Shown: piece after piece, positions 4,270 to 22,250 of the stretch | Position numbering within the stretch: the stretch's first letter is position 1 | Layout: each line of letters starts with the position of its first letter | Assembly: GCF_003668575.1 (NCBI RefSeq) | Contig: NZ_RCVZ01000001.1 | Location: forward strand, 501,046 to 525,045 | Reading direction: 5' to 3' | Origin: Falsibacillus albus | GTDB taxonomy: Bacteria > Bacillota > Bacilli > Bacillales > DSM-25281 | Length of the DNA stretch: 24,000 bases | Program-made: the position numbers and the translations under genes | Notes under the pieces: model-generated | Database searches by the model: none | The model's input: only the letters and a program-made list of their open reading frames with translations | What the model was told of the DNA's origin: nothing

Positions 4270-4773
4270 ATGTTAAAGGTTCAAGAAATTCGTGAGCTTA
4301 TTAAGCTAGTCGATCAATCGAGCATTGATGAATTCGTATATGAATATGAAGGTTCTAAAATAGAAATGAAAAAAAGAGGTGAGGCTGTCGTTGCCGCACA
4401 GCCAGTTCAACAAGCGGCTGCTCCAGCACCATCTGCACCACCGGCACCTGCTGCACCTGCCGCACCGGCGCCTGAGGCTCCAGCTGCAGCCGTTCAAGAA
4501 ACTGTTCAGCCAGCAGCAGAAGATGATGCCAATTTACATAAAATCACTTCCCCGATGGTGGGAACATTTTATGCTTCCCCATCACCTGATGCAGACCTTT
4601 ATGTGAAAACTGGATCAAGGGTTGGAGAAGATACGGTTGTCTGTATCGTTGAAGCGATGAAATTATTCAATGAAATCGAAGCGGAAGTGAATGGAGAAAT
4701 CGTAGAAATTTTAGTTAAAGATGGACAACTGGTAGAATATGGACAACCATTATTCTTAGTAAAGCCTGAGTAA
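4270..4773 (+). CDS. accB: Acetyl-CoA carboxylase biotin carboxyl carrier protein (BCCP)
   Basis: It carries the biotinylation motif [11 protein letters not shown] and a Pro/Ala-rich linker, and it aligns with remembered B. subtilis AccB (MLNIKEIHELIK..). ATG 4270 is preferred over 4261 because the AGGAG SD ends at 4259. Confidence 0.95.
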
Positions 4774-4786
4774 GGAGCGATTCTTT

Positions 4787-6139
4787 ATGATTAAAAAGCT
4801 ATTAATTGCAAATAGGGGAGAAATAGCGGTCCGCATCATCCGTGCAGCACGGGAGATGGGGGTAGAAACCGTTGCAGTATACTCCGAAGCAGATAAAGAG
4901 GCTCTTCATGTCCAAATTGCAGACGAAGCATACTGTATAGGACCAAAGACGTCAAAAGACAGCTACTTAAATTTCACAAATATCATCAGCGTTGCAAAAC
5001 TGACTGGATGTGAAGCGATTCATCCCGGATATGGATTCTTAGCGGAGAATGCAGATTTTGCTGAGCTCTGCAGGGACTGCAATATCACTTTTGTCGGCCC
5101 GAGCCCTGAAGCGATCTCCAAAATGGGTACAAAAGATGTGGCAAGGGAAACGATGCGTGAGGCAGGCGTCCCGATTGTGCCCGGTTCAAAGGGAATCGTG
5201 AAAGATATTGATGATGCGATTAAATTAGCCAATGAAATGGATTATCCCGTCATCATCAAAGCTACTGCCGGCGGTGGTGGAAAAGGGATCCGCGTGGCAA
5301 GGACCGAACAGGAATTAATTAAAGGAATCAACATTACACAGCAGGAGGCAATGACTGCATTTGGGAATCCTGGTGTGTATATAGAAAAGTACATTGAGGA
5401 TTTCAGACATGTAGAAATCCAAGTCATGGCAGACAACTATGGCAATGTCATCCACTTGGGTGAAAGGGATTGCTCCATCCAACGGAGACTTCAAAAGCTC
5501 TTGGAAGAAACACCGTCCCCCGCTTTGGATGGTGAAATGCGTGCTACGATGGGAGAAGCGGCTGTCAAGGCAGCAAAAGCAGTTGATTATTCCGGAGCTG
5601 GGACGGTAGAATTTATATATGACCATGTAAATCGTAAGTTTTACTTCATGGAAATGAACACGCGCATCCAGGTCGAGCATCCAGTCACAGAAATGGTCAC
5701 AGGCGTTGATTTGATCAAAGAAATGATCCGTGTGGCTTCCGGTGAAAAATTGTCATTGAAACAAGAAGAGGTAACGTTCAGTGGCTGGTCGATCGAATGC
5801 CGCATCAATGCAGAAAATCCGGAGAAGAACTTCATGCCGTCACCGGGCAAGATCGATATGTATCTCCCTCCCGGCGGCTTTGGTGTAAGGGTGGAATCGG
5901 CAGCATATCCAGGCTATTCAATCCCGCCGTATTATGATTCCATGATCGCCAAGCTCATTACCTATGGAGCTACTAGGGAAGAAGCCATCCAAAGAATGAG
6001 GCGTGCTCTCAGCGAATTTGTCATCGAAGGTATCCATACCACGATTCCTTTCCATTTGAAGTTATTGGAGCATGAAACGTTTGTAGGCGGGGATTTTAAT
6101 ACAAAGTTCCTCGAAAAGTACGATGTAATGAATACTTAA
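4787..6139 (+). CDS. accC: Acetyl-CoA carboxylase biotin carboxylase subunit
   Basis: The 450-aa product has ATP-grasp motifs ([20 protein letters not shown]) and lies immediately downstream of accB. Confidence 0.97.
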
Positions 6140-6160
6140 TCTTCACTGGAGGTGTTGGAT

Positions 6161-6577
6161 ATGTCAGAAAATCAGATGAATAATGTTTTAGAAATGAATC
6201 AAGGAAACGATGGGCTCGGTAAAGTCGAGATTGCACCTGAAGTCATTGAAGTCATTGCAGGCATTGCTGCATCCGAAGTGGAAGGAGTTGCCCAAATGCG
6301 CGGCAACTTTGCTTCTGGCGTCGTAGAACGCTTAGGCAAAAAAAACCACGGAAAAGGCGTTAAGGTGGAGCTCTCGGAAGAAGGCATAAAAGTTGATGTC
6401 TTCTGCCTTATGAACTTCGGAGTCTCCATCCCGAACGTAGCCCAAGAAATACAGGATAACATTCGCCAGGCATTAATGAATATGACTGCACTGGAAGCGA
6501 ATGAAGTCAATATTCATGTAGTCGGAATTCAATTCGAAAACCAAAAACATGAAATCTATGACGAAACAGAAGAATAA
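6161..6577 (+). CDS. yqhY: Asp23/Gls24 family envelope stress response protein (YqhY-like)
   Basis: GKVEIAPEVIEVIAGIAASEVEGVAQMRG is the typical Asp23-family N-terminus, and the gene has the conserved position after accC. ATG 6161 is preferred because a GGAGG SD lies 8 nt upstream. Confidence 0.85.
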   Translation: MSENQMNNVLEMNQGNDGLGKVEIAPEVIEVIAGIAASEVEGVAQMRGNFASGVVERLGKKNHGKGVKVELSEEGIKVDVFCLMNFGVSIPNVAQEIQDNIRQALMNMTALEANEVNIHVVGIQFENQKHEIYDETEE

Positions 6578-6685: not shown

Positions 6686-8173
6686 TTGATTGATTGTCGG
6701 GTGTTTAATGCTCTTGATATGTCAAGTTTGATTAAAAAGAAAGCAATGGAGCGTGAATGGCTCCTGTTGAGGAAGAGATGGGCTCGTAACGGTAGCAAAA
6801 GAGAGCATCTGATGCCCGTCAGAACCGAAACGGAAGCTGAAGGGAACCAGAATCGAGATCTGATGCCCGCCAGGAACGAAACGGAAGCTAAAGGGAATCA
6901 GAACCGAAATCTGGTGCCCGTCAGGAACGAAATGAAAGCTGAAGGGAACCAGAACCGAAATCTGATGCCCGCCAGAACCAAAACCGAAGCTAAAGGGAAT
7001 CAGAATCGAAATCTGATGCCCGCCAGAACCAAAACCGAAGCTAAAGGGAATCAGAACCGAAATCTGGTGCCCGTCAGAACCGAAACGGAAGCTAAAGGGA
7101 ATCAGAACCGAAATCTGATGCCCGTCAGGAACGAAACGGAAGCTAAAGGGAATCAGAACCGAAATCTGGTGCCCGTCAGGAACGAAACGGAAGCTGAAGG
7201 GAACCAGAATCGAGATCTGATGCCCGCCAGGAACGAAACGGAAGCTAAAGGGAATCAGAACCGAAATCTGGTGCCCGTCAGGAACGAAATGAAAGCTGAA
7301 GGGAACCAGAACCGAAATCTGATGCCCGCCAGAACCAAAACCGAAGCTAAAGGGAATCAGAATCGAAATCTGATGCCCGCCAGAACCAAAACCGAAGCTA
7401 AAGGGAATCAGAACCGAAATCTGGTGCCCGTCAGAACCGAAACGGAAGCTAAAGGGAATCAGAGTCGAAATCTGATGCCCGCCAGAACCAAAACCGAAGC
7501 TAAAGGGAATCAGAACCGAAATCTGGTGCCCGTCAGGAACGAAACGGAAGCTGAAGGGAACCAGAATCGAGATCTGGTGCCCGTCAGAACCGAAACGGAA
7601 GCTAAAGGGAATCAGAACCGAAATCTGATGCCCGTCAGGAACGAAACGGAAGCTAAAGGGAATCAGAACCGAAATCTGGTGCCCGTCAGGAACGAAACGG
7701 AAGCTGAAGGGAACCAGAATCGAGATCTGGTGCCCGTCAGAACCGAAACGGAAGCTAAAGGGAATCAGAACCGAAATCTGATGCCCGTCAGGAACGAAAC
7801 GGAAGCTAAAGGGAATCAGAACCGAAATCTGGTGCCCGTCAGGAACGAAACGGAAGCTGAAGGGAACCAGAATCGAGATCTGGTGCCCGTCAGAACGGAA
7901 ACCGAAGCTAACGGGAATCAGAATCGAAATCTGATGCCCGCCAGAACCAAAACCGAAGCTAAAGGGAATCAGAACCGAAATCTGGTGCCCGTCAGGAACG
8001 AAACGGAAGCTAAAGGGAATCAGAATCGAGATCTGGTGCCCGTCAGAACCGAAACGGAAGCTAAAGGGAATCAGAACCGAAATCTGGTGCCCGTCAGGAA
8101 CGAAACGGAAGCTAAAGGGAATCAGGATGGCATTACGCTTTCCATTGCAGATGGCCTCCTTCTTTTATGTTGA
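6686..8173 (+). CDS. Doubtful ORF: hypothetical repetitive protein (17-aa repeat LxPxRxxxxAxGNQNRN x26), possibly just a by-product of the 51-bp array
   Basis: The frame is open for 495 codons. However, there is no SD before TTG 6686, ATG 6719 or ATG 6746, and no signal peptide or TM segment. Most unit variants are non-synonymous, including K/E swaps. An open frame across a 17-codon unit is expected by chance in several of the six frames. Confidence 0.3.
   Translation: MIDCRVFNALDMSSLIKKKAMEREWLLLRKRWARNGSKREHLMPVRTETEAEGNQNRDLMPARNETEAKGNQNRNLVPVRNEMKAEGNQNRNLMPARTKTEAKGNQNRNLMPARTKTEAKGNQNRNLVPVRTETEAKGNQNRNLMPVRNETEAKGNQNRNLVPVRNETEAEGNQNRDLMPARNETEAKGNQNRNLVPVRNEMKAEGNQNRNLMPARTKTEAKGNQNRNLMPARTKTEAKGNQNRNLVPVRTETEAKGNQSRNLMPARTKTEAKGNQNRNLVPVRNETEAEGNQNRDLVPVRTETEAKGNQNRNLMPVRNETEAKGNQNRNLVPVRNETEAEGNQNRDLVPVRTETEAKGNQNRNLMPVRNETEAKGNQNRNLVPVRNETEAEGNQNRDLVPVRTETEANGNQNRNLMPARTKTEAKGNQNRNLVPVRNETEAKGNQNRDLVPVRTETEAKGNQNRNLVPVRNETEAKGNQDGITLSIADGLLLLC
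6809..8125. repeat. Tandem array of ~26 x 51-bp units, perfectly phased, with 357-bp and 153-bp higher-order repeats
   Basis: Unit starts (CTG) fall at 6809+51n, checked at 6860, 7217, 7574 and 8084. There are four main unit types built from about 12 biallelic positions. Confidence 0.97.
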
Positions 8174-8793: not shown

Positions 8794-9035
8794 GAGAACG
8801 GGGTCCATTCATAAAGAATTACTGCAGCTTAAGCGTCTAACGACATCGAAGCGGTAGCATGATAGAAGCGTTTAGGGCTGTTCCGCTGGTGCCTGGCTTC
8901 TCCTATAAAGCTCTATATAGTAGAAGTGCGAGCCGATGGCATTCTACTAAATATGGTTTAGGAGTCGCCCGGCACTTTCTTTATGGACAGATCCTTTCTT
9001 TTTCGGGCAAAATTTCTTTATGAAGGGTGTAATAG

Positions 9036-10613: not shown

Positions 10614-11501
10614 TTGTTCCAGCAATCATTGAAAGAATTCATGTCGGCCCACAGAGATGTGGTCGAGAAAGAAATGAACAAAAAAATCTCGGGATTGGCG
10701 GCTCCGGAAATCATGAAAGAGGCAATGACCTATTCGCTGCAGGCGGGTGGAAAAAGGCTAAGGCCCATCCTGCTGCTTGCGACCCTCTCTGCCTATGGGG
10801 AGAAGCTCGGAAAGGGGTTAGCGGCAGCCTGCGCATTGGAGATGATCCATACATATTCCCTCATTCATGATGATCTTCCAAGCATGGACAATGATGACCT
10901 TCGCAGGGGGAAGCCGACGAATCATAAAGTATTCGGCGAAGCATTTGCCATTCTTGCCGGGGATGCATTGCTTACATATAGTTTTCAGATCCTTGCAGCC
11001 GATGAGGAAAATACACCGGAAATAAAAATCCGGCTGGTAGAACTGCTGAGCAAATGTTCGGGTGCAGAAGGGATGGTTGGAGGTCAGGCGGCAGACCTTC
11101 AAGGTGAAAATCGGTCATTGACACTCGAGGAATTGGAGTATATCCATTTAAATAAAACGGGTAAACTGCTCATGTTCAGTGTGGTGGCTGGTGCCATCAT
11201 AGCAGGCGCAAGCAGCAAGGAGCTCCAATTATTTGAAGCGTTTGCGCTGCATCTTGGACTGGCTTTTCAAATACAGGATGACATTTTGGACATAGAAGGA
11301 GACGTATCTAAAATCGGCAAACCGATTGGGAGCGATACAACGAATCATAAGAGCACCTACCCTGCATTGCTGACCATGGATGGAGCTAAGGAAAAGCTGA
11401 AAGAACACGTGGCAGAAGCAAAGAAAATGCTGGCTCAAACACGATTGGATATCGGATTATTGGAGGAAATCACCGATTTGGTCGCGCAAAGGGATCATTA
11501 A
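10614..11501 (+). CDS. ispA: Farnesyl diphosphate synthase (polyprenyl synthetase family)
   Basis: Both aspartate-rich motifs are present (LIHDDLPSMDNDDLRRG and FQIQDDILD). It has a TTG start 7 nt after a GGAGG SD, and the position after xseB is conserved. Confidence 0.92.
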   Translation: MFQQSLKEFMSAHRDVVEKEMNKKISGLAAPEIMKEAMTYSLQAGGKRLRPILLLATLSAYGEKLGKGLAAACALEMIHTYSLIHDDLPSMDNDDLRRGKPTNHKVFGEAFAILAGDALLTYSFQILAADEENTPEIKIRLVELLSKCSGAEGMVGGQAADLQGENRSLTLEELEYIHLNKTGKLLMFSVVAGAIIAGASSKELQLFEAFALHLGLAFQIQDDILDIEGDVSKIGKPIGSDTTNHKSTYPALLTMDGAKEKLKEHVAEAKKMLAQTRLDIGLLEEITDLVAQRDH

Positions 11502-11590
11502 TGATCGATCCTTCTATAAAGGTTGTTTCTCAAAGATTGTTGCTTCAGTGGATGTGCAGCGTCGGAATAGACGCAATCACAGATTATCGT

Positions 11591-11629
11591 TTGAGCGTAT
11601 GAAATAACCTATGGTATAATAAGTATAAT
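11591..11629 (+). promoter_or_regulatory. Candidate sigma-A promoter upstream of the OLE-like RNA (TTGAGC-18-TGgTATAAT, second TATAAT at 11624-11629)
   Basis: The -35 TTGAGC is at 11591-11596. The extended -10 has TG at 11612-11613 and TATAAT at 11615-11620. Confidence 0.4.
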
Positions 11630-12235
11630 GATAGATGGATGGTGCAGTATTCTAGTCGACCTACCATTCTTGAAGGTGGGCCTAAAAATCCACTAAAGGG
11701 CACATCGATGAAGTTCCTGGTTTTGGCTTGGGGAGCCCAGCCTTGGGTCAAAGCTGGGAGTAAAGCTTAAGGGCGATCCACAATGGCATGTGGGCGATGA
11801 CCCTTAAGCTGCGGAGGCTTCGTATCTAGCGCTGGCAATATGCATGTGCAATAGTGCGGAGTATGAACCTGTGATGTGGTCAAAGGGTATCACTAGCAGC
11901 GTAGCCTGCCTTGAGTGAAGTTTGAGGGGATTATGGTAACAAAGCACACATCAGTTGGCCATTGATATGTACTTTTTCGCCCATATGAAATCGGCTTTGC
12001 AAAAGAGGCTAAGGAATGGTTAAAGGTTGTTGAGGAAATCTCCTAGGCTGTTTCTATCTGAACATATTTAGGGGATTATAGTGCGGACTAAGTGGTAATC
12101 CAGTCTAACTGCTGGTGACACAGTTAAGATGCCTTTAAAGGGAAACCGCCGGCTTGGCAACATCCGGTATGCATCTGGGAAAACCTACTGGACCTAAGCC
12201 GCAATCTTAACCCTGCATATGACCATCCATTTTTA
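11630..12235 (+). ncRNA. ole: OLE (ornate, large, extremophilic) RNA candidate; ends approximate
   Basis: This gap of about 750 bp has no ORF of 60 aa or more on either strand. It lies in the diagnostic ispA / ole / oapA / dxs context. A long-range closing helix pairs 11635-11647 (ATGGATGGTGCAG) with 12213-12230 (CTGC..ACCATCCAT). A 10-bp helix pairs 11764-11773 with 11801-11810, and there are many further local helices. The length of about 600 nt matches the published size of about 610 nt. Confidence 0.75.
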
Positions 12236-12257
12236 ATCATATTGACACAAGAAATCG

Positions 12258-12884
12258 GTGATTGATAAATATATGAGAGATATAATGATAAACTCAATAA
12301 AATGGAGTATCAGCATTGCCGTTATCACTTTTGTGTTAGCGGCTATTTTTTCAATAGCATCAAACGGCATCCTTCATGGGGTTGCCTGGGGTACTGGATT
12401 GATTGTCGTTTTGATCATTGTCTTTATCGGTATTTTCTTTGATATGATCGGGATCGCCGCAACGGCAGCAGATGAAGTCCCTTTTCATGCGATGGCCTCA
12501 AAAAAAGTGTATGGAGCGAAGCATTCCATCAACATCGTACGCAATGCCGACCGATTTGCAAGCTTTTGTAATGATGTAATAGGCGATGTTTCGGGTATTA
12601 TAAGTGGTACAGCCACTACAATTGTCATCATCCAGCTCACGGTGAATCTGAAGCTTGGCCAAAGCTCTTATATCGATTATATGATCAATGTTACATTAAC
12701 AAGTTTCATCGCCGCGCTGACCGTTGGCGGGAAAGCCTTTGGAAAATCCTTTGCGATTCGCTATTCTCGTGATATTATTTTTCAGGTCGGGAAAGTTTTA
12801 CAATTTCTTGAGGAAAAATTTCATATCGCTATAATAAAAGATAAAAAGTCGAAAAAGAAATCAACTATTAACAGACGAAAGTGA
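12258..12884 (+). CDS. oapA: OLE-associated membrane protein OapA candidate (small 4-TM protein, basic C-terminal tail); start uncertain (GTG 12258, ATG 12273 or ATG 12285)
   Basis: It lies immediately downstream of the OLE-like RNA and upstream of dxs. It has four hydrophobic segments, two related motifs (FDMIGIAATAAD and NDVIGDVSGIISG, the latter D-x-x-x-D), and a KKSKKKSTINRRK tail. Confidence 0.72.
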   Translation: MIDKYMRDIMINSIKWSISIAVITFVLAAIFSIASNGILHGVAWGTGLIVVLIIVFIGIFFDMIGIAATAADEVPFHAMASKKVYGAKHSINIVRNADRFASFCNDVIGDVSGIISGTATTIVIIQLTVNLKLGQSSYIDYMINVTLTSFIAALTVGGKAFGKSFAIRYSRDIIFQVGKVLQFLEEKFHIAIIKDKKSKKKSTINRRK

Positions 12885-12894
12885 GTGATCCGTG

Positions 12895-14787
12895 ATGGAT
12901 CTGTTAGAAATAAAAGACCCTGGGTTTTTAAAGAACATGACCAATAGCCAGCTGGAAGGACTAAGCAAGGAAATTCGCCAGTTCTTGATTGAAAAGCTAT
13001 CCGTTACCGGCGGCCATATCGGCCCGAACCTTGGGGTGGTGGAGCTTACACTTGCCCTACATAAGTGTTTTGACAGCCCAAAGGACAAGATGATCTGGGA
13101 CGTGGGACACCAGTCCTATGTCCATAAAATATTGACTGGACGCGCCGGTGAATTTGACACCTTGCGTCAATACAAAGGTCTTTGCGGGTTCCCGAAACGA
13201 AATGAGAGTGAGCATGATGTATGGGAGACCGGGCATAGTTCCACATCTCTCTCTGCTGCCATGGGCATGGCAATCGCGAGGGATTTGAAAAAGGAAAAAT
13301 CATATATTCTACCAATTATCGGCGATGGGGCCCTTACAGGTGGAATGGCGCTCGAAGCACTGAATCATATCGGTGATGAGAAGAAAAATATGATCGTCGT
13401 CTTGAATGATAATGAAATGTCGATTGCCCCGAATGTAGGGGCATTGCACAAAGTGCTCGGGAAACTTCGTACAGCAGGTAAGTACCATTGGGCAAAGGAT
13501 GAGTTGGAGTACTTGCTGAAGAAAATCCCGGCAGTCGGCGGAAAGCTTGCCACTACAGCGGAGCGGATCAAGGATAGCCTAAAATATTTCCTTGTTTCGG
13601 GAATGTTCTTTGAAGACCTTGGGTTCACTTACTTGGGACCAGTGGATGGGCATAATTTTGAAGATTTATTTGAGAACATACAATATGCGAAGAAGACAGA
13701 AGGTCCCGTCCTCCTTCATGTCCTAACAAAGAAGGGGAAGGGATTTGACCCTGCTGAGTCGGATACAGTCGGCACTTGGCATGGTACAGGGCCTTATAAA
13801 ATCGATACCGGTGACCTTATTAAGCCCGTCAATGCTCCTCCTGCCTGGAGCAAATTGGTAAGTGAAACGGTCCGCAAGCTGGCGAGGACCGACGAACGCA
13901 TTGTTGCGATCACACCTGCGATGCCGGTCGGATCAAAGCTGGAAGGATTTGCTCAGGAATTTCCTGATAGGATGTATGATGTCGGGATAGCCGAGCAGCA
14001 CGCCGCAACGGTTGCGGCTGGATTGGCCACTCAGGATATGAAGCCATTCCTTGCCATTTATTCCACCTTTCTTCAACGTGCCTATGATCAAGTGGTCCAT
14101 GATATTTGCCGTCAAAATTTGAACGTGTTCATCGGAATCGACCGGGCAGGATTGGTCGGGGCAGATGGAGAGACGCATCAAGGCGTTTTTGATATTGCCT
14201 TTTTAAGACATTTGCCGAATATGGTATTAATGATGCCAAAGGATGAAAATGAAGGACAGCATATGGTCAATACCGCTATAAAATATGATGCTGGACCAAT
14301 CGCGATGCGCTTTCCACGCGGAAATGGCTATGGCGTGCCAATGGATTCGTCTCTCAAAGAGATACCGATCGGTTCATGGGAAGTATTGAGAAAAGGAACG
14401 GATGCGGCGATCCTAACGTTTGGAACGACGATCCCTATGGCGATGGAGGCTGCCGATCAATTGGAAAGCAGCGGAATTTCGGTTAAAGTCATCAATGCAA
14501 GATTCATCAAACCACTCGATGAGAAAATGCTGACTGAACTATTGTCTCAGGAAATGCCGATATTGACGATTGAGGAAGCCGTCCTTCAAGGGGGATTTGG
14601 AAGTGCTGTCCTGGAATTTGCCCATGATCATGGTTATCATCATGCAGCGATTGACAGAATGGGCATACCTGATTGCTTTATTGAACACGGCAGCGTTGGC
14701 AAACTCTTGGAAGAGATCGGGCTTACTTCTGAGCAGGTAGCCTTGAAGATACAAACAATGACACCAAAAAAACAAAAAAGGGCTTAA
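12895..14787 (+). CDS. dxs: 1-deoxy-D-xylulose-5-phosphate synthase
   Basis: It is near-colinear with remembered B. subtilis Dxs (MDLLSIQDPSFLKNM.., [22 protein letters not shown]). ATG 12895 is preferred over GTG 12892. Confidence 0.97.
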
Positions 14788-15623: not shown

Positions 15624-15789
15624 AAGATGGATGAGCTTGTGCGTCTTGAATGTGTTCCTTCATTGGGGACCATTCAAGATTGTGCAGGCTTTTTCAGTGG
15701 AAAATTGTACTTTTCAAAAAAATAAGCTAACATGTATGTATATCCGAGCATAAATATACAAGTTAGTTGGGGGTCGGCATATACCGATG

Positions 15790-16239
15790 ATGAATAAAGG
15801 ACAGAGACATATAAAAATACGCGAAATCATTGCACACTATGAAATTGAGACACAGGACGATTTGGTGGATCATCTAAAGAATTTAGGATTTAACGTGACC
15901 CAGGCCACTGTCTCAAGGGATATTAAAGAACTTCACCTGGTAAAGGTCCCTTTAATGGATGGGCGCTATAAATACAGCTTGCCGGCAGACCAGAGGTTCA
16001 ATCCGCTGCAAAAGCTGAAAAGAACTTTGACAGATGCATTCATTACCATCGATTCGGCAGGTCATTTGCTTGTGATGAAGACACTTCCGGGCAATGCCAA
16101 TGCCATTGGTGCATTATTGGATAATCTGGATTGGGAGGAGATCCTCGGGACCATTTGCGGGGATGATACGTGTTTAATTATTTGTAAAACGGAAAAAGAT
16201 ACAGAAATTATCTCGCAAAGATTATTAGATATGCTGTAA
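15790..16239 (+). CDS. argR: Arginine repressor ArgR/AhrC
   Basis: [14 protein letters not shown]...[16 protein letters not shown]...GTICGDDT is near-identical to remembered B. subtilis AhrC. Confidence 0.94.
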
Positions 16240-20705: not shown

Positions 20706-22250
20706 GTGAAAATTCATCATAATGATTATTTTTCAATTGATACAATTAACAACGATGTATTGATCACTGTCCAAAAAACAGGGTATCCTCTCTCTGCCTT
20801 CAATAATGTTCTGATGGAATTCCCGAGGATAGCCTTGGAAGATTTTCTATCCCTGAAAACGGCAATCACCAAGGCTGACTGCACCCAGCAAAGAATAGGT
20901 TCTTTGAAGGAAGAAGCCGAATGTTGGATCGAAGAGGATGAAATGATTGCATCTATTCAAGTGAATATGACCGAAAAGGATTATATTGAAAAAAAGGAAA
21001 GCATACAAACCAAAATCAATGAAATGCTTGCTGCAAAAGGAGTCGTTTTCGGGATTATGGAGGAAGCAATAGCAGGGCTGTCACCGATGAAGAAAATAAT
21101 AGCAGCAAAGGGTAAGGATGCAGTCCAAGGAAGCAATGCATCCATTTCATACAAGGAAAGACCGGAAAGAAAGCCGACGATCACTGCAGAAGGCAAAGCG
21201 GACTATTTTGATATGAATTTTTTGACGGAAGTAAAGGAAGGGGATTGCTTAGGAAAAAAAACACGTCCTACAAAAGGGGAATCCGGAAAGACTGTTATCG
21301 GTAGAGAAATACCGGGGCCTTCTGGAAAAGATCAAGAGTTTGTTTATGATAAGAAAACGATTGAACTTATCGATGAAGGTGAGAATTCATATTTGATTGC
21401 AAAGGTGAACGGTGTTTTGGAGTTCATCAATGGTAAAATTTCTGTCGGTCCTCATTTAATCATTGAGGGGGATGTCGGCTATGAAACGGGAAATATTGAA
21501 TTTGATGGTACGGTTACGATAAAAGGGACGGTTCAGCGCGGCTTTTCAGTGAAAGCTTCTAAGGATATAGCCGTCCATGGCGAGCTTGGGATTAGTGGAT
21601 GTGACCTGATTGAATCATACGATGGAGATGTATTTATTAAAGGAGGGCTCTTTGGAAGCGGAATTTCAAAGGTTGTAGCTGCACATAATATTTTCATCAA
21701 GCATGCCCATGAGTCCACAATGGTTGCCGGGGAAGACATCAGAATAGGCTACAGTGGAATCGGATGCATGATCATAGGGAAAAATGTTTTAGCTGATCAT
21801 AAAAAAGGGAAAATCATTGGTGGTGTCATTGAAGCAGAGGGAAAAGTGATTTCTGGAACGATTGGGAATAAGACAGAGATGAAAACGAATATTATTGTAA
21901 AAGGCTTCGATCGTTCAGAGGTGATAAGCAAAGTAAAGGATTATCGAAATCGTCAGAAAAAAGCCGAGCTTGCTCTAAAGGATGCAAGGAATGAACTTGC
22001 CCGTGCAGCAAAAACCGGCGCACATTCGTTACATAAGCTTATTTCGGAAATAGCAGATGAGATGGAACAAAACAACCGTGAAATCAAATCCCTGCTTTCC
22101 CTTTTGGACACGAAAGGAGAAGGGGAAATAACTGCGTTTCACGGTATGTTCCCCCAAACCTATATTCAAATCAAGTCTGCAAGAAAACTGATAAAAATGA
22201 TGACAAGAGGGACAGTTTATTTAAAAGAACATTCATTAAATTTTCTATAG
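20706..22250 (+). CDS. FapA/DUF342 family protein (beta-helix repeat region followed by a coiled coil)
   Basis: The central region GDVGYETGNIEFDGTVTIKGTVQRGFSVKASKDIAVHGEL...KGKIIGGVIEAEGKVISGTIGNKTEMKTNIIV has the pattern I associate with PF03961-type proteins, and a C-terminal coiled coil follows. It has a GTG start with a weak SD. The family call is from memory of the motif pattern only. Confidence 0.65.
   Translation: MKIHHNDYFSIDTINNDVLITVQKTGYPLSAFNNVLMEFPRIALEDFLSLKTAITKADCTQQRIGSLKEEAECWIEEDEMIASIQVNMTEKDYIEKKESIQTKINEMLAAKGVVFGIMEEAIAGLSPMKKIIAAKGKDAVQGSNASISYKERPERKPTITAEGKADYFDMNFLTEVKEGDCLGKKTRPTKGESGKTVIGREIPGPSGKDQEFVYDKKTIELIDEGENSYLIAKVNGVLEFINGKISVGPHLIIEGDVGYETGNIEFDGTVTIKGTVQRGFSVKASKDIAVHGELGISGCDLIESYDGDVFIKGGLFGSGISKVVAAHNIFIKHAHESTMVAGEDIRIGYSGIGCMIIGKNVLADHKKGKIIGGVIEAEGKVISGTIGNKTEMKTNIIVKGFDRSEVISKVKDYRNRQKKAELALKDARNELARAAKTGAHSLHKLISEIADEMEQNNREIKSLLSLLDTKGEGEITAFHGMFPQTYIQIKSARKLIKMMTRGTVYLKEHSLNFL

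Follow-up and report, generated by a model that had tools for sequence, protein, structure and literature searches.

The window analysed here is a 24,000-nucleotide stretch of the Falsibacillus albus genome (contig NZ_RCVZ01000001.1, positions 501,046 to 525,045 of the forward strand). It carries, in order, spoIIIAC to spoIIIAG, accB, accC, yqhY (Asp23 family), a repeat array, nusB, xseA, xseB, ispA, ole, oapA, dxs, tlyA, ahrC/argR, recN, spoIVB and spo0A. The features around which the analysis was built are as follows.

10614..11501, + strand: ispA, farnesyl diphosphate synthase (NF045485, 430 bits; PF00348)
11623..12242, + strand: OLE RNA gene (ole), with the limits of the Rfam RF01071 match
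12285..12884, + strand: oapA, 199 aa (other possible starts at 12258 and 12273)
12892..14787, + strand: dxs, 1-deoxy-D-xylulose-5-phosphate synthase (TIGR00204, 964 bits)

Between the end of the ispA homologue (11501) and the start of the next open reading frame (ORF) of at least 60 aa (12258) lies a gap of 756 bases (11502-12257). The original prediction described this gap as free of ORFs of at least 60 aa on either strand, and none was found there; the 14 ORFs of 20-57 aa on the two strands combined reach a maximum length of 57 aa. It also described the gap as richer in GC than its surroundings, which is not the case, as the GC content of the region is 0.45 versus 0.41-0.50 in the flanking 600-nt windows.

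A scan of the whole 24 kb window with Rfam 15 gave a match to the OLE family (RF01071) at 11623-12242 on the + strand, with a score of 504.8 bits (gathering score, 50) and an E value of 1.5e-145. The match is untruncated and covers model positions 1-616 of 616, and no Rfam family other than OLE was found in the window. The gap had been read as an OLE RNA gene in the original prediction, which proposed running the OLE covariance model over it; the significant full-length match bears out that reading. When the structure line of RF01071 was mapped onto the window, 140 of the 158 consensus pairs in 18 helices were canonical, with the noncanonical pairs clustering in P7 (11/17 canonical) and P8 (9/13) in the register of the model. 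The terminal helix P1 (11633-43 with 12222-32) encloses 600 nt, as expected from the length of OLE RNA. P7, P8, P9 and the P13 OapB site are all found, indicating the full-length type of OLE RNA rather than variant 1 or 2. The host also fits the family, since F. albus belongs to the Bacillota (Bacilli; Bacillaceae), and the sporulation genes spoIIIA, spoIVB and spo0A lie within the window. Nothing contradicts the identification, and 11623-12242 (+) is almost certainly the F. albus ole gene, encoding an OLE (ornate, large, extremophilic) RNA that is full-length and measures about 610 nt. The mature RNA probably extends from about 11627 to 12232-12242, or roughly 605-615 nt.

For comparison, a pattern scan with the invariant block GGGCACATCGATGAAG, taking one genome per species, returned at least 120 loci, all from genomes other than those of the window and H. 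halodurans. An OLE homologue was detected by nhmmer in 89 of the at least 120 loci listed, while about 30 of them were chance matches outside the Bacillota that carry no OLE. Many comparable Bacillaceae among the loci listed also carry OLE. Alignment A1 was made from the window and 74 full-length homologues (75 sequences). About 25% of OLE positions are described as near-invariant, and about 25 helices are assigned to the RNA. The original prediction was to fail if the covariance model gave no significant hit and conserved OLE nucleotides were absent. Of the 167 columns with at least 97% conservation among the 74 other OLE RNAs, the window agrees at 166. At the 90% level the agreement is 223/229; among the six positions that disagree, 11677 and 11692 compensate each other as a U-A pair in P4.

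Covariation was tested on the Rfam structure plus the candidate helix P1 (169 pairs) against 500 shuffles. Across the 75 sequences, 84.0% of the cells were paired, compared to 68.1% after shuffling and 40-45% when the partners were slid by 1-3 columns. Compensatory changes were seen in 143/169 pairs, and the observed measures were reached by 0/500 shuffles.

The long-range helices that organize the RNA are the following.

11633..11643, + strand: P1, 5' strand, pairing with 12222-12232 and closing the whole RNA
12222..12232, + strand: P1, 3' strand, with a U run (12230-12234) after it
11644..11655, + strand: P2, 5' strand, GCAG (11644-47) and UCUAG (11651-55) with a UAU bulge
12043-12051, + strand: P2, 3' strand, CUAGG and CUGU, partner of 11644-55
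11657-62 with 12024-29, + strand: P3.1, 6 bp, located from the literature description
11663-71 with 12012-20, + strand: P3, 9 bp, located from the literature description
12032-42, + strand: P10 hairpin, between the 3' strands of P3.1 and P2

P1 comprises 11 bp, and its inner 7 pairs are 85-100% paired across the homologues. It is not part of the Rfam structure line, whose ends stay unpaired; the helix closing OLE RNA goes by the name P1 in published work (Lyon and Breaker 2025, PMC12265935), and the 5' RACE ends of B. halodurans OLE map near its start (Wallace et al. 2012, PMC3413148). The Rfam line also lacks P2, P3 and P3.1, and our search for these helices started from the account of P1-P3 that Lyon and Breaker gave in 2025 (PMC12265935). 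We infer that the helix formed by 11644-55 and 12043-51 is P2. It is 99-100% paired, its 5' strand contains a CUAG palindrome, and position 11651 (U/C) covaries with 12047 (A/G; UA in 56 and CG in 18 sequences). P3 and P3.1 show compensatory changes in 14/15 pairs and are 86-88% paired. Together, P2, P3.1 and P3 are 91.8% paired, compared to 34-49% with slid partners. The P3/P3.1 stalk, which has been proposed to span the membrane, with about 14 bp estimated for the bilayer (PMC12265935), is 15 bp long in the window.

The local helices, loops and protein-contact elements are listed in 5' to 3' order; we infer the numbers of P10 to P15 from position.

11675..11694, + strand: P4 hairpin with the conserved A-rich loop CCUAAAAA (11681-88); 6/6 pairs canonical, 98% paired
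11695..11713, + strand: P4a / J4a-5 segment AAAGGGCACAUCGAUGAAG, invariant in 75/75 sequences
11714..11760, + strand: P5/P5.1 hairpin, 20 bp, loop GCCCA (11735-39); 19/20 pairs canonical
11764-73 with 11801-10, + strand: P6, AGCTTAAGGG with CCCTTAAGCT; 9/9 consensus pairs canonical
11778-82 with 11789-93, + strand: P6.1, loop AAUGGC (11783-88); 5/5 pairs canonical
11818-61, + strand: P7, 11/17 pairs canonical in the register of the model
11869-99, + strand: P8, 9/13 pairs canonical in the register of the model
11908..12009, + strand: P9 arm of four stacked helices; 5/5, 10/10, 5/5 and 13/15 pairs canonical
12052..12221, + strand: 3' domain, helices 81-99.8% paired and nearly all covarying
12052-62, + strand: P11, consensus helix
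12063-73 with 12211-21, + strand: P12, consensus helix
12082-86 with 12199-203, + strand: unnamed consensus helix of the 3' domain
12099-104 with 12187-92, + strand: P12.2, consensus helix
12106-26, + strand: P13, consensus helix with GUGA loop (12115-18) and bulged C12112
12127-34 with 12169-76, + strand: P14, consensus helix
12148-68, + strand: P14a, consensus helix with loop GCAA

Several of these elements correspond to known contact sites. The A-rich L4 is a dimerization contact in cryo-EM structures, and in the dimer L5.1 forms a kissing interaction with L6.1 of the other RNA (PMC12265935). The P5/P5.1 hairpin that bears L5.1 is 96.5% paired, with 15/20 pairs covarying in the 75 sequences. 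The terminal loop of the P9 arm, L9.3, holds the palindrome GGCC (11957-60); L9.3 is described in the literature as a kissing-loop dimer contact with the palindromes GGCC, GAUC and AGCU. The P4a / J4a-5 segment carries an AUCGAU palindrome (11704-09) and, going by the literature, the GA-rich side of the kink turn that OapC binds. The contact regions of OapA have been mapped "in or near P2 and P4a", and by analogy CUAG in P2 and AUCGAU in P4a would be these two regions in the window. The docking site of OapB is known to consist of P12.2 and P13, and its determinants (the GUGA tetraloop, the single-nucleotide P13 bulge and P12.2) are present. The bulge, two positions before the loop-closing pairs, is C12112 in the window and U498 in B. 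halodurans. P7 and P8 are short, as in other Bacillaceae, and local folds give them a slightly different register. The region from J6/7 to P8 is variable in OLE RNAs, and some functional variants lack P7/P8 altogether (Fernando and Breaker 2024, PMC11332333).

The helices named in the original prediction, which was made by inspection of the sequence, fared unequally. Its closing helix, ATGGATGGT at 11635-11643 with ACCATCCAT at 12222-12230, was confirmed by an exact string check and is the core of P1, in which 10/11 pairs changed on both sides among the 75 OLE sequences. The proposed pairing of AGCTTAAGGG with CCCTTAAGCT, enclosing CCACA/TGTGG, coincides with the consensus helices P6 and P6.1. 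Its extension of the terminal helix by GCAG (11644-11647) and CTGC (12213-12216) is present in the single-sequence minimum-energy fold, yet it does not covary. We rejected this extension because it is only 58.7% paired, no better than shuffles, and because both strands belong to covarying helices: GCAG is part of P2, and CTGC is part of the helix 12063-73 with 12211-21, in which 11/11 pairs covary. The suggested hairpin of CCCAGC with GCTGGG (11753-58) was likewise discarded. CCCAGC lies at 11736-41 rather than 11746-51, ten positions from where it had been placed, and the complementarity is conserved with zero covariation and competes with the 20-bp P5 hairpin, CCCAG being the L5.1 loop and GCUGGG the 3' strand of P5. 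For GTGAT and ATCAC, both strings are in place (11871-75 and 11889-93) inside the P8 region, but the register of their pairing is ambiguous, because GUGGU (11876-80) takes ATCAC in the local minimum-energy fold.

A 10-nt direct repeat had also been pointed out, and AGGGGATTAT does occur twice, at 11925-34 and 12070-79. About 0.2 repeated 10-mers would be expected by chance within 620 nt by our estimate. The repeat is exact only in the window, and at least 8 nt of it are shared in 11 of the 75 homologues, mostly Bacilli; we therefore rejected it as a feature of the OLE family. The copies of the duplicated motif, GGGGAUUAU / (G)AGGGGAUUAU, lie in an internal loop of the P9 arm and at the 3' end of the 5' strand of P12, and both fall in conserved elements with a common GGAU core. 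It is conceivable, although improbable, that the (G)AGGGGAUUAU copies are equivalent docking sites for one partner, or make a lineage-specific intra- or intermolecular contact, in Bacillaceae OLE. If so, such a contact would connect cytoplasmic domain 1 to the unresolved domain 2.

The RNA is preceded by promoter-like elements.

11591..11620, + strand: proximal ole promoter, 10/12 hexamer matches plus TG

The promoter consists of a -35 element, TTGAGC (11591-96), an 18-nt spacer and an extended -10 element, TGgTATAAT (11612-20). This arrangement, proposed beforehand as a promoter belonging to the RNA itself, outscores every other promoter-like site on the + strand near the OLE RNA and ends 12 nt before P1. 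Judged from its sequence, the promoter is probably of the sigma-A type with an extended -10, and the transcription start is predicted near 11627, 6 nt before P1. We surveyed the 90 nt upstream of GCAGUAU in the OLE loci among the matches listed, requiring at least 5/6 hexamer matches for an extended -10. The best promoter-like site in this interval was an extended -10 in 69 of 85 loci, compared to 2.6% of random segments of 90 nt drawn from these loci and judged by the same criterion. The extended -10 usually ends 20-21 nt before GCAG, and the TTGAGC -35 is common to several loci. A proximal promoter of ole has been shown experimentally in B. halodurans (Wallace et al. 2012, PMC3413148). No terminator-like site was found on the + strand between 10500 and 13000, so that ole is not separated from ispA or oapA. 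It is therefore plausible that transcription reads through from ispA and on into oapA, and the OLE RNA is probably cotranscribed with oapA, as no such site lies between them. Read-through has likewise been reported for B. halodurans ole.

The oapA ORF begins 43 nt after the Rfam OLE match on the same strand. Its product matches an F. albus "hypothetical protein" of 199 aa at 100% identity, for which reason the start at 12285 was adopted, and the second-best match shows 77% identity. Homologues carry the name "CNNM transmembrane domain-containing". No family matched OapA at the default threshold; with a relaxed threshold, residues 40-175 matched PF01595 (CNNM) with an E value of 0.0016 and 18.6 bits, below the cutoff of 28.4, while one homologue (P0069) passes the PF01595 threshold with 29.2 bits. 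Strongly hydrophobic stretches lie at about 1-63 and 98-120, a weaker one, judged by eye, is at about 133-150, and the C-terminal tail is rich in Lys/Arg (KDKKSKKKSTINRRK). The protein thus has the traits expected of OapA: about four transmembrane helices (an approximate count from a hydropathy scan), a basic cluster and a distant relation to CNNM. In nearly all of the loci listed for which sequence was available, an OapA homologue is encoded on the strand of OLE, 8-340 nt downstream of it, and most of the loci listed have ispA upstream and dxs downstream of OLE. Because a homologue follows OLE in nearly all comparison loci, and following the published definition of oapA, the 199-aa membrane protein is, as judged by its conserved position beside OLE in about 70 loci, OapA. 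The predicted order of ispA, OLE, a small membrane-protein gene and dxs is thus present. Genomes with the OLE ribonucleoprotein are expected to carry genes for OapB, a KOW-motif protein of about 100 aa, and for OapC as well, and in most cases to be free of MpfA. No oapB, oapC or mpfA gene was found in the 24 kb window.

Three other explanations of the gap were weighed against a free-standing OLE RNA. One is that it acts in cis as a leader (riboswitch or attenuator) for oapA-dxs. The absence of a terminator-like site before oapA would suit such a leader, and dxs is a metabolic gene of a type that riboswitches often control. However, the Rfam scan matched no riboswitch or leader family in the window, and known leaders are far smaller than this P1-closed structure of some 25 helices and about 600 nt. 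Moreover, OLE also occurs where tlyA, not dxs, follows oapA (L090, L018 and L050), and in B. halodurans OLE is present as one stable, abundant species and works together with OapA (PMC3413148). A role as a leader is therefore very improbable. The proposal that the gap encodes one or more missed small proteins, with the RNA structure being incidental, can draw on the 14 short ORFs on the two strands. It is contradicted by the 60-aa mark that none of them reaches, by conservation that tracks pairing (143 pairs compensatory) and by invariant blocks that cover three frames, and a covariance-model score of 504.8 bits is impossible from coding constraint. We regard this as the least probable of the three, with a likelihood that is practically negligible.

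The remaining alternative is a decaying, nonfunctional relic of OLE in a nonextremophile host. To our knowledge, F. albus is neither an alkaliphile nor an extremophile, and P7 and P8 fit the model imperfectly. A relic would hardly be expected to keep 166 of 167 near-invariant positions, all long-range helices intact, the promoter and an intact oapA ORF, and P7 and P8 are naturally variable and missing in some functional variants (PMC11332333). Decay is consequently extremely unlikely, and only the coding of small proteins is less likely still. A full-length, intact OLE RNA remains the preferred reading.

OLE RNA, a membrane-associated RNA of the stress response, has been known since 2006 (Puerta-Fernandez 2006). 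Fernando and Breaker (2024; PMC11332333) reported it from 2,822 Bacillota genomes. Publications already cover the family as well as its synteny, promoter and protein partners, and the case is an ordinary one. Because the family, neighbourhood, promoter and partners have been described, the locus adds little to biology, and the F. albus copy makes no open question about OLE newly testable. As an aerobic, spore-forming member of the Bacillaceae that is not evidently an extremophile, F. albus provides one more comparison point for the family. For annotation, the 756-bp "empty" gap of F. albus is explained and the adjoining "hypothetical protein" can be named OapA.

The likely workings of the locus can be drawn from characterized OLE systems. 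By analogy with H. halodurans and Clostridium, ole would be transcribed mainly from its own promoter, with some read-through of the xseA-xseB-ispA transcript, and the RNA would accumulate as a stable, abundant species. Two RNAs may dimerize via the A-rich L4, the L5.1/L6.1 kissing loops and the GGCC kissing loop of L9.3. OapA would be expected to bind the CUAG of P2 and the AUCGAU of P4a, on either side of the 15-bp P3/P3.1 stalk, and to tether the RNA to or through the membrane. From the same kind of comparison, OapB may dock on the P13 GUGA loop and P12.2, and the base of P5 and P6 may offer kink-turn conformers to which OapC and bS21 bind. A particle built in this way would contribute to tolerance of short-chain alcohols, of cold, of excess Mg2+ and of poor carbon sources, as its counterparts do. 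According to a published hypothesis, which we favour as the most likely biochemical role, OLE RNA might regulate OapA, a putative divalent-cation transporter; equally hypothetically, the RNA might replace the CBS and CorC regulatory domains of the related all-protein MpfA/CNNM transporters.

The locus can be set beside several known systems. GOLLD, ROOL and the raiA motif are, like OLE, large and highly structured RNAs, and GOLLD and ROOL are multimeric; however, they are unrelated to OLE in sequence and fold and lack a membrane-protein partner, and the Rfam scan found no match to any of them in the window. MpfA is regarded in the literature as the all-protein counterpart of the OLE particle, and the relation of OapA to CNNM/MpfA has been published. 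The OapA of the window resembles the CNNM domain of the MpfA / CNNM / CorB Mg2+ transporters (PF01595 + CBS + CorC) at a subthreshold level. In contrast to these transporters, it consists of the membrane domain only (199 aa), without CBS or CorC, and is paired with a large RNA.

The OLE RNAs of Clostridium acetobutylicum and C. botulinum form homodimers in cryo-EM structures (Kretsch 2025, PMC12286853). All of the clostridial dimer contacts are found in the window (the A-rich L4, GCCCA in L5.1, UGGC in L6.1 and GGCC in L9.3), whereas the clostridial RNA is shorter (577 nt) and differs in its variable helices (PMC12286853). Among the matches listed, the nearest OLE is that of Rossellomorea sp. 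FM04394 (L045; nhmmer, 448 bits), followed by those of Lederbergia citrea (L008), L. lenta (L040) and Siminovitchia thermophila (L036). These four relatives resemble the window in their OLE (nhmmer, 381-448 bits) and share its gene order; their OapA and Dxs proteins are 72-77% and 81-84% identical to those of the window, respectively, and the promoter of the Rossellomorea locus, TTGAGC-18-TGnTATAAT, is as in the window. They differ from it at the species level, chiefly in P7, P8 and the outer P9 helices.

The OLE of Halalkalibacterium (Bacillus) halodurans C-125 shares with the F. albus RNA the full-length P1-P15 architecture, the conserved nucleotides and a proximal promoter by P1 (PMC3413148, PMC12265935). 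Also shared are oapA directly downstream, the neighbourhood of xseA/xseB, ispA, dxs, tlyA, argR and recN, and the OapB site with its GUGA loop, bulged P13 and P12.2. The two RNAs differ in the bulged P13 nucleotide, which is C rather than U in F. albus, and in P7 and P8, which are shorter there.

The promoter proposed for the OLE RNA gene (ole) at 11591-11620 gained support from comparison across loci. Among the matches listed, an extended -10 element (TGnTATAAT) was present upstream of OLE in 69 of 85 loci, versus 2.6% of random segments. The distance from P1, the helix that closes the whole RNA, to this element was nearly constant across the listed OLE loci of Bacilli and Clostridia, and a TTGAGC -35 element was common to several of them. 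Examples include the window promoter and those of Rossellomorea sp. FM04394 (L045), Lederbergia citrea (L008), and Siminovitchia thermophila (L036). To our knowledge, there is no published statement on the conservation of the OLE extended -10 element across the whole family. In B. halodurans, a promoter upstream of OLE has been demonstrated experimentally (PMC3413148). Another perfect TATAAT occurs at 11624-11629, 4 nt past the first hexamer, with no TG upstream and no good -35 element; it overlaps the region of predicted transcription start.

Within the RNA, the 10-nt internal direct repeat described in the original prediction, AGGGGAUUAU, was recovered as exact copies at 11925-11934, in the P9 internal loop, and 12070-12079, where the 5' strand of P12 ends. 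The two sites had at least 8 nt in common in 11 of the 75 OLE RNAs, mostly from Bacilli, and a GGAU core was retained family-wide at both sites, in each case among the matches listed. A U run (12230-12240) immediately follows the P1 3' strand, and the Rfam OLE consensus is likewise U-rich at its end.

Two comparison loci, L012 (Ammoniphilus MAG, about 4370-5160) and L037 (about 1615-2460), had no detectable oapA homologue between OLE and dxs, which starts about 200 nt past OLE in both. They depart from an ole-oapA pairing that is otherwise near-universal among the matches listed. A third locus, L117, is a 2.3-kb contig from a MAG labelled Fibrobacter sp. that carries xseB, ispA, and OLE in an order typical of Bacillota. 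This contig probably comes from a member of the Bacillota and was misbinned, a reading that agrees with the remark in the literature on the few non-Bacillota OLE hits.

Elsewhere in the window, a tandem array at 6807-8125 comprises 25.9 copies of a 51-nt unit (88% matches, without indels) and is flanked by yqhY (Asp23 family) and nusB. The array lies within a 495-aa ORF (6686-8173, +), and in-frame translation of the unit yields NLMPARTKTEAKGNQNR or a variant of it, a repeat of 17 aa for which Pfam gave no match. The array could be either a highly repetitive protein or a noncoding repeat. The nusB-xseA gap spans 243 nt (8794-9035); this position is occupied by folD in B. subtilis, and no folD was found in the 24-kb window. 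Downstream of spo0A, a 514-aa ORF (20706-22250) had no NCBIfam match at an E value of 1e-5.

Two genes near ole also appear in the OLE literature:
6152-6577, yqhY, 5 kb upstream of ole
15787-16239, ahrC/argR, 3.5 kb downstream of ole

The former is among the frequent ole neighbours, and ArgR has been named as an unpublished candidate OLE partner (Lyon and Breaker 2025, PMC12265935).
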